Below, piece after piece: positions 480 through 11,833 of a stretch of 64,000 bases of DNA. Both the position numbers and the translations under genes were made by a program. The stretch is from the sequence record PX104378.1. One strand, 5' to 3'. The notes under the pieces are model-generated. The model saw only the letters and a list, made by a program, of their open reading frames with translations. It did not search any database and had not been told where the DNA came from. This stretch comes from a phage. The stretch's first letter is position 1; each line of letters begins with the position of its first letter.

Positions 480-2531
480 TTACATTTTAAATTTATCTGG
501 CATTGCGTCTACAGATACCAGATCAGCGATAAGCTGACGTAGAGTTGCCTTATCTGCTTTCTTACGTTCGGTTTTAGCTTCGGTAATAAAGCTGGAGAAA
601 GACAGGTCAGAAGCAGGTTTAACAACACCTTCACGGATGAATGCATCACCGTCCGCGATCATCTCGCCAGATTCTTGTAATGCTGCCAGTTCATTTTTGT
701 TCATAATATGTGCCTCAATGTAATAAGTTTCTTGTGAATCCGTCGATGCCGTAGCACGAGTTACCGTATCAAAGGATAACACAACACCGCGAGGAAGTAA
801 AATCTCGCATTCTTTGTAAGCAAATGCTTTGTTACCTACTGGCAATACGGGGATGTTTTCCGCGCCAGCAATGGAGAAAGCAACATTAGCGCCACCTTCA
901 CCGCGAGATCCAGCCATAGAATCTACACCAGCAACGGCACTAGCCACGTTTGCATTCCAGCCGCCAAAAATGTTAGGTGCAAGGGAAGTGCTCACATAGT
1001 TTTTAAAGTAAAACGCTTTTTGCTTACGTGCAGTTTCCCACATTTGCGACCGGAAGTCCATACCACGATACAGAATAGTACCAGGATCAAGTTTAACGCC
1101 ATAGTTGGAGAAGGCATTATCCAGTGCATCGCACATCTTGACCAATTCTTCTGGATCTGCGATGCCTTCAAACTCTTCCAGCTTACGGTCGGTTAGGAAG
1201 TTGTTCATATTGATGTATGCTGCATCGGCATATTCGCTCAACACAAAACCTTCCGCGCCCGGCAGATCAAGATCAATATCTGCCATCATTTCACCCATGT
1301 TGCTAGCAATTGCTTCAAACATACCGGAAGCAACATTACGTAGGGCATCGGTTTTAATCTGTGTGATGTGACTACGCAGCATTTCAGCTTTTACATCTGC
1401 TGGCATAGACTGGTCTACTCGATCCATTGCCAGGGCGGTGATCTTGTTTTCGAATACTTCCTCGCTCATGATTTCTTTTAAGCGTTTGATTGATGCTGCG
1501 ATAACTTCCGCAGACAACGGATCATATTGATCCTGAACTTTTACCAGTTCGCTTACTGCATATTTTGCATCGGCTTCGCTTTCAAAAATAGTACGCATGA
1601 AACCATAGCGAGTGATAATATCACTTGTCCAGTCATTCAGAGAACGAGCGGTTGAACGTTCTAAGGCTTGACGATCAATCAGAGTATTAAACTGTTTCTT
1701 AGGTTCGGCTTCGGTGATATCTTCTTCTGGTTTAAGATTAATTTTTTCTGGATGATTCACGTAGTCGCTGTTATATGTCGCTTGAGTTTTCAGCATTTCT
1801 TCTTTAGTCAAACGAGATTTAGCCGCTACGCGTTGTTCCGCTTCCGCGTTTCGTTCTTCTTCTGACACAAGACTAGCCGCATACGCCTCATCTTTAGTCA
1901 GAGATTCACCAGTAGCCTTAGATACCCAGCGATCACCTAAATCACTTTCTACTTTAGTGAACAAGGATTCATCAAGTTTAATCCCTTTAATCTTATCAAT
2001 CGCCATCCCGCGACGCTTGACAACAACTAAAGCGATCTTTTTGCTGGTCATTACTTCCTGCTGGAATACTTCAAACTTCGGTGTACGACGCACCAAACGC
2101 TCTATAACGCGCTTAACCAGTTCGGTCTTACCTTTCATGCGGGATACGTTAAAACGGAACATAACAGCGTCTAATTGCGCTTTACGGGCTGTTTCCATAA
2201 CCACATCAAAAGCACTTGCCATAACTGCAATCGGGTTATCGCCTAGACCATTTTTAAGCTGTACAATACGACCGCTTTTGTTCATTTCGCACAGTACAAC
2301 ATGTGCGGTCTTGTCACCCATACGAATGATTTTAGGTGTTTTGTTGGTGAAGTTACAAAGACGGACAATCACATCTTTATCGCGTGTCTGTACTGCAAAA
2401 AGCTGTTTAGGATTCTGCTTAGGCTTTAAGCACTGTACCGGAGCAATACTGCCAAAGTTTTCTTCCTCTTCCGTCAACAGCCATTTCTCGAAAGATTCAA
2501 TCATTAGATCGTCGATTTCTAAGTTAAACAT
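480..2531 (-). CDS. alt: Alt-like ADP-ribosyltransferase (virion protein)
   Basis: 683 aa (T4 Alt 682 aa); C-terminal R-S-ExE ART signature (YRGMD, STS, ECEILLPRG); GAGGA SD. Confidence 0.85.
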   Translation of the reverse strand: MFNLEIDDLMIESFEKWLLTEEEENFGSIAPVQCLKPKQNPKQLFAVQTRDKDVIVRLCNFTNKTPKIIRMGDKTAHVVLCEMNKSGRIVQLKNGLGDNPIAVMASAFDVVMETARKAQLDAVMFRFNVSRMKGKTELVKRVIERLVRRTPKFEVFQQEVMTSKKIALVVVKRRGMAIDKIKGIKLDESLFTKVESDLGDRWVSKATGESLTKDEAYAASLVSEEERNAEAEQRVAAKSRLTKEEMLKTQATYNSDYVNHPEKINLKPEEDITEAEPKKQFNTLIDRQALERSTARSLNDWTSDIITRYGFMRTIFESEADAKYAVSELVKVQDQYDPLSAEVIAASIKRLKEIMSEEVFENKITALAMDRVDQSMPADVKAEMLRSHITQIKTDALRNVASGMFEAIASNMGEMMADIDLDLPGAEGFVLSEYADAAYINMNNFLTDRKLEEFEGIADPEELVKMCDALDNAFSNYGVKLDPGTILYRGMDFRSQMWETARKQKAFYFKNYVSTSLAPNIFGGWNANVASAVAGVDSMAGSRGEGGANVAFSIAGAENIPVLPVGNKAFAYKECEILLPRGVVLSFDTVTRATASTDSQETYYIEAHIMNKNELAALQESGEMIADGDAFIREGVVKPASDLSFSSFITEAKTERKKADKATLRQLIADLVSVDAMPDKFKM

Positions 2532-2882: not shown

Positions 2883-3401
2883 TTAGTTATTTTTTAATTG
2901 CTCATCTTGCAATAAAGCAATCACATGCTGGCGATGTTCTTCCGATTGAGGCACACCGAAAAAGTTTGTTTTGTAGAAATACTCTAATCGGTCTTCTCGT
3001 GTGCTCTCTTCCATCATGATCGCGGGTAGTCCGAGATTTCGGAAACGTCGCTTTTCTGCTGGCGTAAAATCGCTGTAATACAGCATAGAATCATCATTAC
3101 CAGCAATGCTAAACTCATCCTTCATGAAGGAGAATATTGCGTTTAAACGCTGTTTACCGTCCACTATTTCGATTTCATAGCGAGAGCCATCATCAATCTT
3201 AGCCATTGCGATAGCACCAACCGGAAAATCATTAATCAGGTTTTCGATAAACATACGTTTGTTTTCGGTGTCCCATACCAAAGGACGCTGATAATCTGGG
3301 TTCATGTTGATATAGCCATCTTCTAACCACGCCTCATAAACAGAGATGACAAAGTTTTTAGTATTGGTATAGTAACGGCGTTTAGGAGTTAAACGGTTCA
3401 T
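2883..3401 (-). CDS. standalone DUF262 / ParB-like domain protein
   Basis: 172 aa; YQRPLVW and IVDGKQRLNAIF match the DUF262 QR..VW and DGQQR motifs; no DUF1524/HNH partner domain. Confidence 0.6.
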   Translation of the reverse strand: MNRLTPKRRYYTNTKNFVISVYEAWLEDGYINMNPDYQRPLVWDTENKRMFIENLINDFPVGAIAMAKIDDGSRYEIEIVDGKQRLNAIFSFMKDEFSIAGNDDSMLYYSDFTPAEKRRFRNLGLPAIMMEESTREDRLEYFYKTNFFGVPQSEEHRQHVIALLQDEQLKNN

Positions 3402-3577: not shown

Positions 3578-3912
3578 AATATAGTTCTCCTGAATGGATC
3601 ATCACGTAAATCAATATCTTTTAAGAACTCATCCCATGAATAGCGGATATTGTTCTTAATTCTCCAGATAAGCGCAGGGATTGAACGCTCTCCCATCTGG
3701 AAGTATGGATCGTATGATCCGTATGCCCAATATGCTACTACAATTCCACAATCAGCGCAATAGTATTCTATTTCACTTGCTGGCGACAAAAGTCCATCAA
3801 TATGATCAGTGATCTTGCTTTCGATGTTATGGCTATGACAATCAGGGCAACGGATGCAATGACCTTGTTTATCGTAATTTGACGTTAGCGAATACTTAAA
3901 CAATCTCATCAT
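3574..3912 (-). CDS. Cys/His-rich Zn-binding protein (112 aa)
   Basis: CIRCPDCHSH ... CADCG cysteine/histidine cluster; 4-nt overlaps with flanking genes. Confidence 0.5.
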   Translation of the reverse strand: MMRLFKYSLTSNYDKQGHCIRCPDCHSHNIESKITDHIDGLLSPASEIEYYCADCGIVVAYWAYGSYDPYFQMGERSIPALIWRIKNNIRYSWDEFLKDIDLRDDPFRRTIL

Positions 3913-4625
3913 AGATCCTTATTGGCTTCAAATACTGCCTTTGCGAATCCTCGCGGGGTAAGTGACCTGATAGTCTTTGTTCTGGTTCCTTTCCCGCCTA
4001 GCTTAGAATGCTGTTTACTGTACCCTTTCTCAATCGGCAACGGTTTCTTTTCTGGCATTATAAAGCCTTGTCCGGTCCATAAGCAAGTCTTTTTCGGGTA
4101 CATATCACGGGCGGCAATATACTCAGGAAACGTAGGATGTATATCATCTTCCGGCAAATAACCGCCATATTCCCACGGGTGGAACATGTAATCAGGCTTA
4201 CGCCACATGCTAGAGATAACGCTTACAGGATTCTCTATCATGTAGGGAACTCCTAGCCATTCACCCAAATAAGCGGTTATTTTAGCTGCCCGTACATCAT
4301 GAACTTGAATTAATGGTCCTTGCTCTCGTTTCTTTCGTTCAAAGTGTGCAGCGCCACTAACAGCTAAATTGGTACACGGTGGGAATGCAAAGATAATATC
4401 CGGTTTCCCCCATTCAAGGTCCATTGCTCTTTCCAGCCAATTCAAATCAATCCATGTGTTTACATAGGTAATGTTTGGATGTTCAAATCGGGTATTATAT
4501 TTTTTGTATGTACCGTGGTCGCCGTCGTCAGCATTGAAGCAGATCACCTTATGACCTGCTTTAGCCCATTCTAGCCCCATTATCCCCGATCCGTCAAAGT
4601 TGCAGAATATTAATTTTTGTTTCAT
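3909..4625 (-). CDS. truncated C5-cytosine methyltransferase-like protein
   Basis: 238 aa; FCNFDGSGIMG (motif I FxGxG), FPPCTNLAVSG (motif IV PC), YMIENP (motif VI ENV-like); no TRD or motifs IX-X. Confidence 0.5.
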   Translation of the reverse strand: MKQKLIFCNFDGSGIMGLEWAKAGHKVICFNADDGDHGTYKKYNTRFEHPNITYVNTWIDLNWLERAMDLEWGKPDIIFAFPPCTNLAVSGAAHFERKKREQGPLIQVHDVRAAKITAYLGEWLGVPYMIENPVSVISSMWRKPDYMFHPWEYGGYLPEDDIHPTFPEYIAARDMYPKKTCLWTGQGFIMPEKKPLPIEKGYSKQHSKLGGKGTRTKTIRSLTPRGFAKAVFEANKDL

Positions 4626-5198: not shown

Positions 5199-5366
5199 TT
5201 ATTTGTTAATTTCTGGTGCGTTGCTAGGATAGTAACCTTCTTTAACTCCGAGGTATTTCGCAACCATCCCTACAATCTTCTGTGCTACTACAATGTCAAA
5301 TTTCAGATAATCTTCGCCGTGGGTTTCAATGATATATGCTTCACATGCTGCTTTAGTCTCGAACAT
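5199..5366 (-). CDS. small hypothetical protein (55 aa), paralog of 8461..8628
   Basis: MFETKAACEAYIIETHGEDYLKFDIVVAQKIVGMVAKYLGVKEGYYPSNAPEINK; nearly identical to the 8461..8628 product. Confidence 0.5.
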   Translation of the reverse strand: MFETKAACEAYIIETHGEDYLKFDIVVAQKIVGMVAKYLGVKEGYYPSNAPEINK

Positions 5367-6160: not shown

Positions 6161-6185
6161 AAAAAAGCCGACGCTAAGGTCGGCT
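6161..6185 (-). terminator. rho-independent terminator
   Basis: AGCCGAC-GCTAAG-GTCGGCT hairpin followed on minus strand by UUUUUU. Confidence 0.6.
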
Positions 6186-6192
6186 AATAAAA

Positions 6193-6501
6193 TCATTTAG
6201 ACAAATAATCATTCTGTGCAATCCGGTCGGCGTATGCTGGTGTTACGTCAATCGCAATCACTTTAACGCGTGCTTTCTTGCGACCTGGGTTTTCTCGTAA
6301 CCAGTGCTCATGACCGTGAACATTTTTATACTGCGATGCTTCTTCGAAGGTACGGATCGGACCTGGGTAATCAGCGTAAAGGATCTCTAGATCTTCGGTG
6401 ATGTAAAAATATACATCGTAATTGCTGTTCTCTAGCTTAAGCAGAGACTTTCGGAACATTGGGAGATTTTCGCGGGTAAATTCAAAGATATTATCTTTCA
6501 T
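6193..6501 (-). CDS. HxHW-family small protein, copy 1 (102 aa)
   Basis: HGHEHW ... VKVIAIDV motif shared with five paralogs; GAGGA SD. Confidence 0.6.
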   Translation of the reverse strand: MKDNIFEFTRENLPMFRKSLLKLENSNYDVYFYITEDLEILYADYPGPIRTFEEASQYKNVHGHEHWLRENPGRKKARVKVIAIDVTPAYADRIAQNDYLSK

Positions 6502-6515
6502 AGTATTATCCTCAA

Positions 6516-6536
6516 TAGTTGGATGAAAAGGGGGCT
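6516..6536 (-). terminator. GC hairpin terminator
   Basis: GGGGGC-TTAAC-GCCCCC followed on minus strand by UUUU. Confidence 0.55.
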
Positions 6537-6551
6537 TAACGCCCCCATATA

Positions 6552-6839
6552 TTAAAACAGTCCTTCTTGTACGCCGTAGTAGAGTTCGTCGCTGATAATT
6601 TCATTAATGCGACGGTGTGCATATTCCTGATTTGCGAAGTTGTCAGCAAGTTCTACTTTAGTTTCGCCGTCATGAGTCCATTTAGTGATAACTTTACCAT
6701 CTGCAAATTTGAAGTTGAACTCTTTAGCTACTGCATCGCGTACCAGACGTGCAAACTTGTTGTTACGGATTGCATTATCGGTTTCGTGTGCAGCGTGAGC
6801 AAATTTGTTAACTTTCAGCGTGATAGTGATGTATGCCAT
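6552..6839 (-). CDS. hypothetical protein (95 aa)
   Basis: ORF behind cassette leader TAGGAGAATCAAATTATG. Confidence 0.55.
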   Translation of the reverse strand: MAYITITLKVNKFAHAAHETDNAIRNNKFARLVRDAVAKEFNFKFADGKVITKWTHDGETKVELADNFANQEYAHRRINEIISDELYYGVQEGLF

Positions 6840-6885
6840 AATTTGATTCTCCTAGTTAGAAAGTGTATCTCGTTTCGATGGGTGT

Positions 6886-6914
6886 ATTATGCTATACACC
6901 CGATCTTATGTCAA
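6886..6914 (-). promoter_or_regulatory. sigma70-type early promoter cassette
   Basis: TTGACA-N17-CATAAT on minus strand. Confidence 0.55.
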
Positions 6915-6920
6915 CACTTT

Positions 6921-7199
6921 TTATAAAATAATTTTTTGATATTTTTCTATGATGTTCGTGTAATCCACATCAACCGCTATCACCGTTGCTTCGAATCCAC
7001 CGTTTAGCCAATGGCTATGGTCATGATCGTGAAAGAAACCAAGACCAGTACGAAGACCTTCTTTATATTCGGCGCGTACATTTAGATCATCATCGATAAA
7101 CAGATAAAACCATGAATTTTTACTAGGATTGATGATACAACCTTTCAGATTAGGGAGAATATCACGACTAAGAATAAACTTATCACCTACTTTGAACAT
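6921..7199 (-). CDS. HxHW-family small protein, copy 2
   Basis: HDHDHSHW ... TVIAVDV; start moved to internal ATG (MFKVGDKF) that has a GAGGA SD. Confidence 0.55.
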   Translation of the reverse strand: MFKVGDKFILSRDILPNLKGCIINPSKNSWFYLFIDDDLNVRAEYKEGLRTGLGFFHDHDHSHWLNGGFEATVIAVDVDYTNIIEKYQKIIL

Positions 7200-7203
7200 A
7201 ATA

Positions 7204-7524
7204 TTAGTCCTCACTTATAAGGTCAAACCAATTGTTTTTCGCATAATGCTTAATGCGTGCTTGATCTGCTTCTGCTGGTGATAGATTCCATGCAACCACT
7301 ACAACTTCTGACGCATCGTCATCCGTTTCTGATACCCAATGATTATGATTCATACAATTGTTTGCTATCGCGTGAGCAAATGATTTCATCACTGGAGACG
7401 TATAATCATAGTAACGGATTTTCAGATTTTCATCAACGTACAAATAGATCGTATAAGGTTTATATTCAGTAACCAGTAACAGACAGTTACGCAATTCTGG
7501 GAAAATATTTTTAGTTAATTTCAT
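7204..7524 (-). CDS. HxHW-family small protein, copy 3 (106 aa)
   Basis: NHNHW ... VVVVAWN; GGAGAA SD. Confidence 0.55.
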   Translation of the reverse strand: MKLTKNIFPELRNCLLLVTEYKPYTIYLYVDENLKIRYYDYTSPVMKSFAHAIANNCMNHNHWVSETDDDASEVVVVAWNLSPAEADQARIKHYAKNNWFDLISED

Positions 7525-7739
7525 ATTCTAGTTCTCCGTAATACACGGTAATCCATTTTTTCTTCATACTTTGTATCTTTCCAACACACAATCCCGTTTA
7601 CTGTGCAATCTTTGGAATTGACGAATGATTCATATTGTTCTGCATCTTCCATCATTGCATGAGCGGTCTTTTCATCGAATATATCGCAGATCGCTTTATA
7701 TGCTCGATAATCTTTAAATTTGCTCATAATTAAGACCAC
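7521..7739 (-). CDS. hypothetical protein (72 aa), tandem paralog A
   Basis: MSKFKDYRAYK... shares N-terminus and C..W..T.Y pattern with 7730..7939. Confidence 0.5.
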   Translation of the reverse strand: MVLIMSKFKDYRAYKAICDIFDEKTAHAMMEDAEQYESFVNSKDCTVNGIVCWKDTKYEEKMDYRVLRRTRI

Positions 7740-7939
7740 TCAAGAGTTTTTGAAAACACATCTATCCATTGTTGAGTATATGCGGTTTCTTTCCATGATA
7801 CAATACCAGTCGAATAATGGTTTTTGTTTCCAGAAAAGGACGGGCATTTTGAGGCATCTTCCATCATCTTTTCGGCGAACTCTGGTTCGTATACTCGCAA
7901 GATCTGTTGATATGCTTTATAATCTTTAAATTTGCTCAT
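7730..7939 (-). CDS. hypothetical protein (69 aa), tandem paralog B
   Basis: MSKFKDYKAYQ... paralog of 7521..7739. Confidence 0.5.
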   Translation of the reverse strand: MSKFKDYKAYQQILRVYEPEFAEKMMEDASKCPSFSGNKNHYSTGIVSWKETAYTQQWIDVFSKTLEWS

Positions 7940-8204
7940 AATTGTTAACTACCTTATCAGCTTCTTTTATTGTTTTTACATCAACTGCGATAATCCGTAA
8001 AGGTTCGTCGAAGGTCCACCAATGATCGTGATTATCAGCTTGTGATTTATCACCAAAGGAATCACGAATATCATTTTTACATTTATAGCTAATGTGACCT
8101 TCATAGTCAACATAAAGGTAATTATCAAAAATCGGCGTTTTTAAGATCATACCGAAAAATCTTTCTTTGTGTGTCTTATCCAGCGTTGCAGTAATTCGCA
8201 TCAT
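7926..8204 (-). CDS. HxHW-family small protein, copy 4 (92 aa)
   Basis: DNHDHWW ... RIIAVDV; AGAGGA SD. Confidence 0.6.
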   Translation of the reverse strand: MMRITATLDKTHKERFFGMILKTPIFDNYLYVDYEGHISYKCKNDIRDSFGDKSQADNHDHWWTFDEPLRIIAVDVKTIKEADKVVNNYEQI

Positions 8205-8216
8205 AATATATTCCTC

Positions 8217-8396
8217 TTAGAAAGGGATGGTCATTTCTTGAGCTTGTACATTCTCGTTAGGATTAAACTTCATCCAACCGATATTGTCTACCAGCATATG
8301 CACATTTTTATCATATCCTACGTGAGTAGTCAATACTGTATGTGCTTTACCTTCAACGATGATTTCCATGTACTTCTGAACTTCGATAGCTTTCAT
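8217..8396 (-). CDS. small hypothetical protein (59 aa)
   Basis: MKAIEVQKYMEIIVEGKAHTVL...; cassette leader GGAGAATCAAAATG. Confidence 0.45.
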   Translation of the reverse strand: MKAIEVQKYMEIIVEGKAHTVLTTHVGYDKNVHMLVDNIGWMKFNPNENVQAQEMTIPF

Positions 8397-8428
8397 TTTG
8401 ATTCTCCGTTTGTTGTCTTGATGGGAGT

Positions 8429-8457
8429 ATCTTACTACTCCCTTTAATCATTGTCAA
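8429..8457 (-). promoter_or_regulatory. sigma70-type early promoter cassette
   Basis: TTGACA-N17-TAAGAT on minus strand. Confidence 0.5.
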
Positions 8458-8460
8458 CGA

Positions 8461-8628
8461 TTATTTGTTAATTTCCGGTGCGTTGCTTGGATAGTAACCT
8501 TCTTTAACACCCAGATATTTTGCAACCATTCCGGTGATCTTCTGTGCTACTACGATATCGAATTTCAGGTAGTCTTCACCGTGGTTTGCTACAATGTATG
8601 CTTCGCATTCTGCTTTAGTCTGGAACAT
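8461..8628 (-). CDS. small hypothetical protein (55 aa), paralog of 5199..5366
   Basis: MFQTKAECEAYIVANHGEDYLKFDIVVAQKITGMVAKYLGVKEGYYPSNAPEINK; start taken at internal ATG behind the cassette leader. Confidence 0.5.
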   Translation of the reverse strand: MFQTKAECEAYIVANHGEDYLKFDIVVAQKITGMVAKYLGVKEGYYPSNAPEINK

Positions 8629-8662
8629 TTTTGATTCTCCTATATCTCGTTGGTATGTGTGC

Positions 8663-8692
8663 ATTATAGGGGATCGGTGACCCCCCTGTCAA
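8663..8692 (-). promoter_or_regulatory. sigma70-type early promoter cassette
   Basis: TTGACA-GGGGGGTCACCGATCCCC(18)-TATAAT on minus strand. Confidence 0.55.
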
Positions 8693-8699
8693 CAACTTT

Positions 8700-9002
8700 T
8701 TATTCTTCGTCTTTATCTTTATATGCGTATTTCATAAATTTGTCTGCCACTTCGTCCGCGTTTTCAGGTTCTACGTCTGACGCTAGGACAACAGCTAGTT
8801 CGGTTTTGTCGTTTCCATCATACCAATGATTATGAGTGTCGTTTTCTTCGATATAAAACGAATCATTTGGATATGGGCGACAATATACGTCTAAATTCCC
8901 ATCGATATAAAAGATCCAATCCGAATACAAAATGATTGTTTTAGCCAGATTTTTATTGTCTCTTACAAAAGGTTCCGCGACAAATAGCTTAGTTTGTTCC
9001 AT
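8700..9002 (-). CDS. HxHW-family small protein, copy 5
   Basis: THNHW ... LAVVLASDV; start at internal ATG (MEQTKLF) with GAGGAG SD. Confidence 0.55.
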   Translation of the reverse strand: MEQTKLFVAEPFVRDNKNLAKTIILYSDWIFYIDGNLDVYCRPYPNDSFYIEENDTHNHWYDGNDKTELAVVLASDVEPENADEVADKFMKYAYKDKDEE

Positions 9003-9018
9003 AGTAATCTCCTCAAAA

Positions 9019-9210
9019 TTATACAACTTCGTAAACTTCCCAATGTCCAACACCGGAACGCTTAACGAAAAGGTTTTCTTTGATGTTATTCATAAACGTC
9101 TGGATGGATTTAATGCGGTTGGAAGGTTTCCAGTCTTCGTTGGCATTGCGGCGATACATAATAACATTACCAGTTCTCTTATATTCAGCAACCATTTTAA
9201 GACCACACAT
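9019..9210 (-). CDS. hypothetical protein (63 aa)
   Basis: ORF with GAGGA SD 9 nt upstream. Confidence 0.4.
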   Translation of the reverse strand: MCGLKMVAEYKRTGNVIMYRRNANEDWKPSNRIKSIQTFMNNIKENLFVKRSGVGHWEVYEVV

Positions 9211-9267
9211 AATATTATCCTCAATTTATGGGAGAGTATTACCCCTCCCAATGATTGTTATATTACA

Positions 9268-9588
9268 TCACACAAAATGGCGTTTCAATGCTTCTTTTGC
9301 GGTTCCGCTAAGACTTTCGATCTCGCCTGGCATAACATCAACTGCCAGAACTTCTACAACATCCTCTGACCCCAACCAGTGAGTATGACCTTTGTAGAAC
9401 TTGATAACCAGACTACCTTCCTCATCCCATTTAACGCTATCGCTAGCCCACCACACATCACCGTCGATAAAGTTGATGTAAAGCACACTACGCCACATTG
9501 AATTAATTACTTTCAATACTGCGCCTTTCATATCTTCCACGGTGTGGTCTTCCATTTTGAAGACCTCGCCTACCTGAACTTTTGCCAT
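9268..9588 (-). CDS. HxHW-family small protein, copy 6 (106 aa)
   Basis: GHTHW ... VLAVDV; GAGGTGA SD. Confidence 0.6.
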   Translation of the reverse strand: MAKVQVGEVFKMEDHTVEDMKGAVLKVINSMWRSVLYINFIDGDVWWASDSVKWDEEGSLVIKFYKGHTHWLGSEDVVEVLAVDVMPGEIESLSGTAKEALKRHFV

Positions 9589-9819: not shown

Positions 9820-9848
9820 AGTATAGGGGATCACCGATCCCCTGTCAA
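9820..9848 (-). promoter_or_regulatory. sigma70-type early promoter cassette
   Basis: TTGACA-GGGGATCGGTGATCCCC(17)-TATACT on minus strand. Confidence 0.55.
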
Positions 9849-9861
9849 CAACTTTTTTGAA

Positions 9862-10338
9862 TTATTTTTCTTGATGCTCGCGCTCGTACTTTTCGAAATA
9901 AAATTCTACTGGCTGGTCGTGGATTGACAGTAAGCCAAAGCGTTTAGCCGCTCGCAACCCCATATTGCGCTGAATGTACTTCTGGAAGTTCTCGCGTATA
10001 CACTTACGCCAGTATTCTAAGCCCATACAGCTTTTATAAAGATTGCATTGCACACACGCCGGATTCATGTTATCAAGTATATCATGCTCCGGTTTATGCA
10101 TTCCTACAACCTTATACTTCCACGATCCATCATCATTACGGGCAATTCGTCCATTTTCATCATAGACTACTTTTGAGCGTCGTAATACTGGTTTGATGTG
10201 GTCTGCGTGCCAGCGATCCCCTAGTTCCTCGCCACAATAGGCACAACGTCCACCATATTTCATTTTCAGGATCTGGCGTTGCTCTTTCTTTGACAATTTT
10301 TTAGGTTTAGGGGCTTTCGCCCCTTCATTATCACACAT
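9862..10338 (-). CDS. HNH endonuclease (homing-endonuclease-like)
   Basis: 158 aa; CAYCG ... WHADHIKP ... NMNPACVQCN (HNH with flanking Cys pairs); start overlaps ligase stop by 8 nt. Confidence 0.7.
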   Translation of the reverse strand: MCDNEGAKAPKPKKLSKKEQRQILKMKYGGRCAYCGEELGDRWHADHIKPVLRRSKVVYDENGRIARNDDGSWKYKVVGMHKPEHDILDNMNPACVQCNLYKSCMGLEYWRKCIRENFQKYIQRNMGLRAAKRFGLLSIHDQPVEFYFEKYEREHQEK

Positions 10339-11833
10339 CGAATACCTCTTTTACTGTATTTGCAGTGGTCTTGTCGTAGCGAATACGTTTGATGATCGGG
10401 AGAAATAAAGAGAACTCCGGTTCATCTTCTTTACGTGATTTGCTGCGGATATACCCGTTGCATGTCATCTCAATGACTTTTCCAATCAGGTTATGACGGT
10501 CAGCCCATAACATTTCTCGGTCAAGTTCATTTCGACGATCGAACGGAATTACACGTTCGATACCATCATCACCTTTTTCGGTTGTAGTGTCGGTTAATCC
10601 CGATCCGGTGTTAGTCATCATTCGTCCACACGCACTACGGACAGTAAAACCGCCTACCTTATTGGGGTCTTTACTATGCGGATATACATCAACAATTTCC
10701 GCGTCGAAGTCAATCACTTCTTTAAATTTAACCTGATCTTTACTACGGCGATCTTCAAATACACCATGCAGATTTTTAAGGATAATACCTTCTAAGCCCA
10801 TGTTTACATAGCGATGATATACTTCGCGAGCTTCATCGATATTGTTAACTACAGTATTTTCGATTATCTGAACACGAGGATCGTTAAGTTCTTCAACAAT
10901 CTGTTTTAGTTCTTCGAATCGATCTTTATATTGCTTCGTTGCTCTCTCGTTTCCGTAATACACATCACGGTCGATAACATCCCAGACAGTGTAAACAATA
11001 CATTGGGCTTCTTCTTTTGGAATAGTTCCTTTCAGTGATTTGTTGAGGATACCATTTCCGGTCTGACGATCCGCAACAACGGATTCTTTTACTGCTTCCG
11101 CTACTGGCGTTAATGGTATTTCCTCTTCTTCAAATATCCATGACAGAGTACCATCATAAACGCTCTCAACGAAGTTCTGCGCTGGTGTTTGCGAAAGGGT
11201 AGGCATATATACCAATTCGCCATCTAGAACAATTCCACGGCCTCGTAGACGCTCTAAAACAGAAAACAAATCATCCAGCCCCTGGTAGGTATTACCTGAA
11301 CGGGTATAGATTGCTAATGTTTCCCCGTCAATATCAGCCATACCACGAGCGCCATCACTTTTAAGCTGTGCATATGCCGGATATTTGATATTAGCAATAG
11401 CCTTATCAGAATATGACGATGCAAGGTGGCATGGTTGCTGGGGGATCAGTTTCTTCCATACCTTGTTTGCAGTGGTAGCGGAACAACCGCATTCCAGATC
11501 ACGATTCAGGACCATCATTGCAACTTTAGCATCATCTTCTGACAAGCAAGTCAGAGTATCGGTAACTAGCTGTAATGCTGCATTACCAGTTACTTGACGC
11601 GTGGCAAGTTTATTTTTAAAGACCTGCAATGCACCGGATAAAGACAATACAGACGAATAGCGCGATGGTTTATCGTATTTCTTTACGCCAAACGTAACCT
11701 GTTTGCAATATGCCAGATAAAAGCATTCTTTCAGCGTTTCATTGCTTGCAGATTCTTTCAGGATCTTTTCTTTCAGCGATGTTTTGTCGGTCGCTGCAAG
11801 CTGGTTAATGATATTAAGAATTGACATTTTCAC
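10331..11833 (-). CDS. 30: ATP-dependent DNA ligase
   Basis: 500 aa; KSDGARG adenylation motif (KxDG); N-terminal half aligns with recalled T4 gp30 (...TGNAA..., ...RDLECG..., LASSY). Confidence 0.9.
   Translation of the reverse strand: MKMSILNIINQLAATDKTSLKEKILKESASNETLKECFYLAYCKQVTFGVKKYDKPSRYSSVLSLSGALQVFKNKLATRQVTGNAALQLVTDTLTCLSEDDAKVAMMVLNRDLECGCSATTANKVWKKLIPQQPCHLASSYSDKAIANIKYPAYAQLKSDGARGMADIDGETLAIYTRSGNTYQGLDDLFSVLERLRGRGIVLDGELVYMPTLSQTPAQNFVESVYDGTLSWIFEEEEIPLTPVAEAVKESVVADRQTGNGILNKSLKGTIPKEEAQCIVYTVWDVIDRDVYYGNERATKQYKDRFEELKQIVEELNDPRVQIIENTVVNNIDEAREVYHRYVNMGLEGIILKNLHGVFEDRRSKDQVKFKEVIDFDAEIVDVYPHSKDPNKVGGFTVRSACGRMMTNTGSGLTDTTTEKGDDGIERVIPFDRRNELDREMLWADRHNLIGKVIEMTCNGYIRSKSRKEDEPEFSLFLPIIKRIRYDKTTANTVKEVFDV

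Follow-up and report, generated by a model that had tools for sequence, protein, structure and literature searches.

ORFans of the ligase-alt region

Small early ORFans number in the hundreds in the hyperplastic regions of T4-type phages, and several small early proteins from such regions of T4 proved to be host-takeover or anti-defence factors. In RB49, the counterpart of the region between the DNA ligase gene and alt is HPR3, a hyperplastic region of non-essential ORFans, which lies between alt and gene 30, comprises the open reading frames (ORFs) ~190-211 and was studied by Arbiol et al. 2010 (PMC2839356). The promoter-early stem-loops (PeSLs) of RB49 and phi1 were identified experimentally, by beta-galactosidase assays, as strong promoters and terminators, and PeSL recombination excises and re-inserts neighbouring ORFans in this region (PMC2839356). 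The ORFs are treated as orphans in that study, which mentions neither that six of them are paralogs nor a function (PMC2839356), and Nolan 2006 also treats the genes as orphans. Here, a stretch of 64,000 nucleotides (nt) of phage DNA (sequence record PX104378.1) was analysed; this whole stretch is called the window in the following. Six small genes between gene 30 and alt, designated M1 to M6, form a six-copy family that is real and well delimited and had not been recognised before. No description of this family, here called the HxHW family, was found in the literature on anti-defence, paralogs and ORFans of Krischvirus/RB49. With a probability of roughly 0.35, we read the encoded proteins as stoichiometric binders of host or competitor molecules, which use a shared scaffold and of which each paralog has its own target.

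Six paralogs with a conserved H-x-H-W motif

All six ORFs (92-106 amino acids, aa) that a preliminary description of the window had named are present as described, on the minus strand. A Shine-Dalgarno-like GAGG/GGAG sequence is located 6-10 nt ahead of the ATG in 6/6 ORFs, and the GenBank annotations of relatives call these six genes too. The genes are listed below with their motif, their PHROGs group, the expectation value (E) of the leave-one-out search and the ratio of nonsynonymous to synonymous substitution rates (dN/dS; dS is the synonymous rate).

9268..9588, minus strand: M6, 106 aa, HTHW; second gene of the putative unit from the PeSL promoter 9848-9820; phrog_16486; leave-one-out E 2.1e-6; dN/dS 0.21
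8700..9002, minus strand: M5, 100 aa, HNHW; most acidic member, isoelectric point (pI) 4.3, net charge -13; phrog_15965; leave-one-out E 2.7e-9; dN/dS 0.23, dS 0.43
7926..8204, minus strand: M4, 92 aa, HDHW; phrog_15972; leave-one-out E 6e-7; dN/dS 0.15
7204..7524, minus strand: M3, 106 aa, HNHW; start overlaps the stop of the upstream 68-aa gene; phrog_9345; leave-one-out E 7e-12; dN/dS 0.07
6921..7199, minus strand: M2, 92 aa, HSHW; start 4 nt past the M3 stop; phrog_17255; leave-one-out E 1.2e-8; dN/dS 0.10
6193..6501, minus strand: M1, 102 aa, HEHW; between two terminator-like hairpins; phrog_9345; leave-one-out E 1.3e-13; AlphaFold2 predicted local distance difference test score (pLDDT) 84; dN/dS 0.24

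For the leave-one-out test, six hidden Markov models, each built from five members, were searched against the 627 stop-to-stop ORFs of at least 40 aa of the window; circularity was excluded by this design. The omitted member was always the next match after the five training sequences (E 1.3e-13 to 2.1e-6), while the best non-member ORF had an E of at least 0.006. A seventh member was not found in the 64-kilobase (kb) window. The six ORFs are true paralogs of one family, as the preliminary description had claimed from their shared motifs.

These motifs are also conserved in position, which had been part of the same claim: in the MAFFT alignment and among the 105 domain sequences that were collected from public data, the H-x-H-W motif, the upstream Y-x-Y-I-D strand and the downstream V-h-A-x-D-V strand share alignment columns. 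Over the full length of the six proteins the residues M1, H64, H66, W67 and A83 (numbering of protein M1) are invariant, at a pairwise identity to protein M1 of 24-31%. In the larger set, the second His (H66) and the Trp (W67) occur in 103/103 sequences each, and the first His (H64) in 100/103, being replaced twice by Ser and once by Asp. Tyr33 of the upstream strand is present in 98 of 104 sequences and is otherwise Phe, Ala83 in 89 of 101 and Asp85, which is otherwise Asn or Gly, in 87 of 101; the Asp of Y-I-D is replaced by Thr or Asn in 59/105. No conserved Cys occurs in the family. The six proteins have a pI of 4.3-6.3, their grand average of hydropathy (GRAVY) is negative in every case, and no hydrophobic segment was detected in any of them.

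Distribution and age of the family

The family is restricted to Krischvirus and uncultured sister lineages. When 1.84 billion cluster representatives were searched exhaustively with a HMMER profile, only 21 clusters were retrieved at E <= 1e-3, all of them from Krischvirus or uncultured sister phages, and each of the 81 matches of a word-indexed search in 5.8 billion proteins was an ortholog of one of the six. When two divergent members were compared by tblastn to 50,697 cultured phage genomes, only ~57 records of Escherichia, Shigella and Enterobacteria phages were obtained, the set that already matched the window; a locus search with the sequence P0096 in IMG/VR gave no match.

Divergent metagenomic members belong to uncultured relatives. 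One sister lineage (L003) shows ~72% nucleotide identity to Krischvirus over 55% of the query, from the ligase over the HNH gene on to the second family member, and possesses two M5-type copies, also at the ligase-to-alt position. A more distant relative (L002) encodes five domains in 2 kb, two of which are fused in one ORF. This natural tandem fusion of two HxHW domains (P0083, L002 823-1434) comprises 203 aa. In another contig (L005, 300-1100), one 266-aa ORF consists of two copies of a neighbouring 69-aa module followed by an M3-type HxHW domain; the two might be linked in function, or a stop codon might have been lost.

In a neighbour-joining tree, the L003 copies fall in the M5 clade, and of three L002 members one pairs with M6, one with M4 and the third with the M1/M3 clade. 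The latter pairings show that the duplications predate the genus and that the copies were stably kept.

Predicted structure and searches for known families

The AlphaFold2 model of M1, which was calculated from a 30-sequence family alignment, reached a mean pLDDT of 84.4 and a predicted template modelling score of 0.80. It consists of four short beta-strands, two short helices, the second of which is formed by H-E-H-W-L, a fifth strand (V-K-V-I-A-I-D) and a C-terminal helix. The blocks 51-60 and 61-70, which hold the variable loop and the motif, have the lowest model confidence (67 in the motif block).

No significant neighbour of the M1 model was found in a fold search of the PDB, and Foldseek against BFVD returned only family members and one possible degenerate member in phage JSE. 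The latter is an extra 88-aa gene next to M6 in JSE and G2494 (L014, phage JSE, 9112-9378; also L001 8001-8267), which is absent from the window. Its protein matches the M1 model in Foldseek with E 7e-3; where the family motifs would be expected, it has IIYVTEDD ... GNGHL ... VHLLAHSV. A seventh member that has degenerated may be represented here, for which the sequence gives weak support (3.4 bits).

In scans of the six proteins against Pfam, NCBIfam and PADLOC no known family was detected, no family recurred when 19 diverse members were scanned against Pfam at E <= 10, and profile searches of PDB sequences yielded nothing below E 0.18. This is in line with the earlier impression that no known housekeeping family is represented here. 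PROCT, TTL and T4_Y03C appeared as single weak matches at E 0.1, which is chance level, and a match to the small subunit of [Fe]-hydrogenase was due to a chance 'HTHW' string only. Members of the metallo-beta-lactamase superfamily are characterized by HxHxDH in an alpha-beta/beta-alpha sandwich of at least ~200 aa and by a match to Pfam Lactamase_B, a combination that was not found in these proteins. The 2H phosphoesterases (LigT/CNPase/Acb1-like) need two H-x-T/S-x motifs in two pseudo-symmetric lobes, and here one H-x-H-W is present per domain; CNPase and a phage phosphodiesterase were recovered as noise only (Foldseek E 1.3-2.9, template modelling score ~0.2). For KOW/Spt5-like, the name given to P0067 in a third-party annotation record, neither a KOW motif nor an SH3-like barrel was detected by Pfam or fold search, and neither sequence nor fold places the family among the HIT-like proteins.

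The main rival of the binder reading sees in the domain a small module that binds a metal or a small ligand and might be a minimal dimeric enzyme; His-x-His and the Asp of V-D-V, possibly joined by that of Y-I-D, would provide one chemistry for different substrates. We consider this rather doubtful. H66 and W67 are invariant, and H64 nearly so (100/103), in paralogs that are otherwise ~25% identical, and 87/101 sequences have D85. The block with the motif is the one of lowest confidence in the model, which is often seen at ligand-dependent sites, and the fusion P0083 would unite two motifs. On the other hand, Ser or Asp replaces the first His in the apparently intact orthologs P0080, P0081 and P0084, 14 sequences have Asn or Gly in place of Asp85, and the replacement of the Asp of Y-I-D (Thr or Asn in 59/105) and the lack of a conserved Cys also speak against such a site. 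Moreover, the model sets the motif in a short helix, so that positions i and i+2 would face different ways, and no significant match to any metalloenzyme, 2H, HIT or metallo-beta-lactamase family was obtained.

Locus and putative transcription units

The window is the genome of a Krischvirus (RB49-like, T4-type coliphage, Straboviridae). The 3.8 kb around the family match 59 records of RB49-like T4-type coliphages at 92-98% identity, with Shigella phage JK32 as the closest record (98.1% identity). Every gene of the region is located on the minus strand, and the six family genes are situated in the hyperplastic region between the following two genes.

10331-11833, minus strand: gene 30, DNA ligase; gp30.3 homolog before, HNH endonuclease after
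480-2531, minus strand: alt, ADP-ribosyltransferase

The promoter cassettes that had been reported between the family genes were found again. Five near-consensus sigma70-type promoters similar to TTGACA-17/18-TATAAT match 10-12 of the 12 hexamer positions and lie inside ~70-nt repeats (repeat families D1/D2, 70-75 nt).

9820..9848, minus strand: PeSL-type early promoter TTGACA-17-TATACT with a GGGGATC/GATCCCC stem-loop in the spacer; putatively heads the unit with M6 and M5
8663..8692, minus strand: PeSL-type promoter TTGACA-18-TATAAT, directly past the M5 stop
8429..8457, minus strand: PeSL-type promoter TTGACA-17-TAAGAT; putatively heads the unit with M4, M3 and M2
6886..6914, minus strand: PeSL-type promoter TTGACA-17-CATAAT, directly past the M2 stop; putatively heads a 95-aa gene and, via read-through, M1
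6134-6106, minus strand: near-consensus sigma70-type promoter in a repeat
6530..6546, minus strand: terminator-like GC hairpin with T-run, between the 95-aa gene and M1
6166..6185, minus strand: terminator-like hairpin with T-run, directly past M1; a terminator is annotated in G2494 and Makalu_003

A GC stem-loop is obvious in the spacer of two of the promoters (9848-9820 and 8692-8663). The cassettes fit the published definition of a PeSL, namely a sigma70-like promoter, a stem-loop and an AT-rich upstream stretch in a repeat of ~70-100 nt between ORFs; the beta-galactosidase evidence was obtained with other PeSLs of RB49 and phi1. As M6 and M5 follow the promoter at 9848, and M4, M3 and M2 the promoter at 8457, these genes probably constitute two transcription units. 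M1 possesses no sigma70-like promoter of its own and lies between the hairpins 6546-6530 and 6185-6166; it would depend for expression on read-through or on a promoter that escaped recognition. Most likely, the six genes are transcribed immediately after infection from the sigma70-type promoters of the PeSLs.

The position next to the ligase gene, alt and other early functions could also indicate a role in the phage's own programme instead of one against host defences, with the paralogs as six sub-functionalised regulators, either modulators of transcription (of phage or host), replication or nucleases or chaperone-like adaptors. The stable copy number and the purifying selection described below, which resemble those of core-like accessory genes, would suit such a role. 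Nevertheless, it is unlikely: no other T4-type genus possesses the family, and all of these genera share the same core programme; moreover, the acidic pI speaks against binding of nucleic acids. Furthermore, the location corresponds to a hyperplastic region of non-essential ORFans (PMC2839356).

Selection, copy number and allele exchange

The genome of the window was compared with nine further Krischvirus genomes, and JSE was looked at besides. Exactly six members occur in 10/10 genomes. The gene-wide dN/dS, calculated according to Nei-Gojobori and pooled over all pairs, ranges from 0.07 to 0.24 in the six genes and thereby lies inside the range of eight interleaved non-family genes (0.02-0.33). 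The family is kept by purifying selection. The diversifying selection that the preliminary description had seen behind the six divergent copies could thus not be confirmed at the level of whole genes, considering also the constant copy number and the old duplications; the family is diverse because it is old, and it is not visibly racing.

M5 occurs in two allele classes across the genus, with 91-94% and ~71% amino-acid identity to the copy of the window. Its dS of 0.43, compared to 0.06-0.16 for most other genes of the region, points to whole-gene exchange by recombination rather than to positive selection, and such a replacement is consistent with PeSL-mediated shuffling. The 68-aa gene at 7521-7727 behaves like M5 (dS 0.72). 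Within orthologs, variability and indels cluster at the profile positions 41-57, which form the loop directly before H-x-H-W; the N-terminal beta-meander shows about half of the variation of this loop.

In JSE (L014; 5871-6178 and 8231-8525) six slots are present, but a frameshift splits M1, the N-terminal part of M5 is disrupted, and an M3-type copy occupies the M2 slot. Either real decay or, this being an older genome, sequencing errors could underlie these differences.

These data also bear on the explanation that the genes are functionless or selfish cargo, which was multiplied by PeSL-mediated recombination and mini-circle shuffling and whose motifs reflect common descent only. PeSL recombination does move ORFans of this region in RB49 and phi1, a 55-aa gene was duplicated together with its PeSL in the window (85% nucleotide identity), and the copies of M1 and M5 in JSE are disrupted, all of which speaks for cargo. 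The selection data disfavour this explanation strongly enough to make it highly improbable, since dN/dS is 0.07-0.24 in all six genes, six copies were kept in ten genomes and orthologous lineages in a distant relative, the motif stayed invariant despite divergence to ~25% identity, and only some of the members directly abut a PeSL.

Putative function of the HxHW proteins

The reading that we prefer is that the HxHW proteins act as stoichiometric binders. Six ancient copies of one soluble alpha/beta domain of ~100 aa, mildly to strongly acidic, would be expressed immediately after infection from the early promoters of the PeSLs, and the proteins, presumably cytoplasmic, would inhibit or sequester host or competitor molecules in a stoichiometric manner. 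The invariant His-x-His-Trp site, which follows the variable loop and precedes the V-h-A-x-D-V strand, might supply a contact chemistry common to all copies, while the loop, variable in sequence and length, and the divergent surface would direct each paralog to a separate target. Separate targets might be an explanation for the retention of all six copies. The fusions P0083 and L005 give a weak hint at a dimeric working unit. We favour this model because the proteins are small, soluble, driven by early promoters, restricted to one lineage and encoded among non-essential genes, because they lack an enzyme-like fold, and because each copy is maintained.

Several points weigh against this reading. 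The binding function itself is one that we infer, and the early timing was deduced only from promoter sequences, of which M1 has none of its own. Two invariant His residues at a paralog identity of ~25% are commoner where a chemistry is shared (metal, ligand, catalysis) than in diversified protein interfaces. No sign of an arms race is visible in the gene-wide dN/dS values. Finally, the dimerisation step derives from one metagenomic fusion ORF, P0083, for which a single-sequence AlphaFold2 prediction gave a pLDDT of only 34.

A more far-reaching variant would be a novel fold working as homo- or heterodimers, in which the His-x-His-Trp sites meet at the interface and bind a metal or a nucleotide-type immune signal. 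Paralogs and fusions would then be combinatorial sponges or inhibitors directed against several host immune pathways at once. We regard this as very unlikely.

If the copies have distinct targets, the family would clearly exemplify how an accessory scaffold is sub-functionalised over the long term in a single phage genome; if the site binds a metal or a ligand, a new small binding fold would be added. In either case, the 3.4-kb block is a compact, testable target and a good candidate for a deletion or a screen with a defence library.

Neighbouring genes

Beside the family, some neighbouring genes of the region, all on the minus strand, were noted.

5199-5366 and 8461-8628, minus strand: 55-aa gene, present twice, each with an upstream PeSL; 172 nt at 85% identity, repeat family D3
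7730-7939 and 7521-7727, minus strand: tandem paralogs of 69 and 68 aa, directly upstream of M3
2883-3401, minus strand: 172-aa phage protein with a GmrSD_N (DUF262) domain (Pfam E 4e-20)
3909-4625, minus strand: 238-aa protein with an F-P-P-C-T motif

The pair of 55-aa genes represents a comparatively recent, PeSL-associated duplication. GmrSD_N is the N-terminal domain of a family of type IV restriction enzymes and is encoded by a phage here. The counterpart of the 238-aa protein in JSE is annotated as 'DNA methyltransferase'; no Pfam match was obtained for the protein of the window at E <= 0.01.

Comparison with known systems

The locus agrees with the HPR3 ORFans of RB49 and phi1 in its position between alt and gene 30, in its promoter-stem-loop cassettes and in its small, non-essential early ORFs (PMC2839356). 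Regarding the protein families, each of the six proteins matches one of the PHROGs 9345, 17255, 15972, 15965 and 16486 from end to end (E 1e-49 to 1e-71), and for four members weak cross-matches exist to another one of these groups. There, the family is split into five seemingly unrelated groups, all labelled 'unknown function', which are unified here by the common motif and the profiles. By this, five 'unknown' PHROGs become a single family of six copies, whose invariant motif is sharply defined, whose structural model is confident and for which no relative is known. The family is solid but unexplained and demonstrates no new mechanism; to meet such a family in a hyperplastic region of a T4-type phage is not in itself surprising.

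Small, soluble, often acidic and oligomeric proteins of narrow taxonomic spread are known from lytic phages as anti-defence sponges and mimics, such as Tad1, Tad2, Acb2 and the Ocr/Arn-type mimics. They resemble the HxHW proteins in size, solubility, acidity and narrow spread and therefore serve as the working model for the family, although no significant similarity in sequence or fold to these solved sponges and inhibitors, or to any other PDB entry, was detected. In copy number the two differ: Tad1, Tad2, Acb2 and the Ocr/Arn-type proteins are usually encoded by a single copy, whereas the HxHW family comprises six paralogs.

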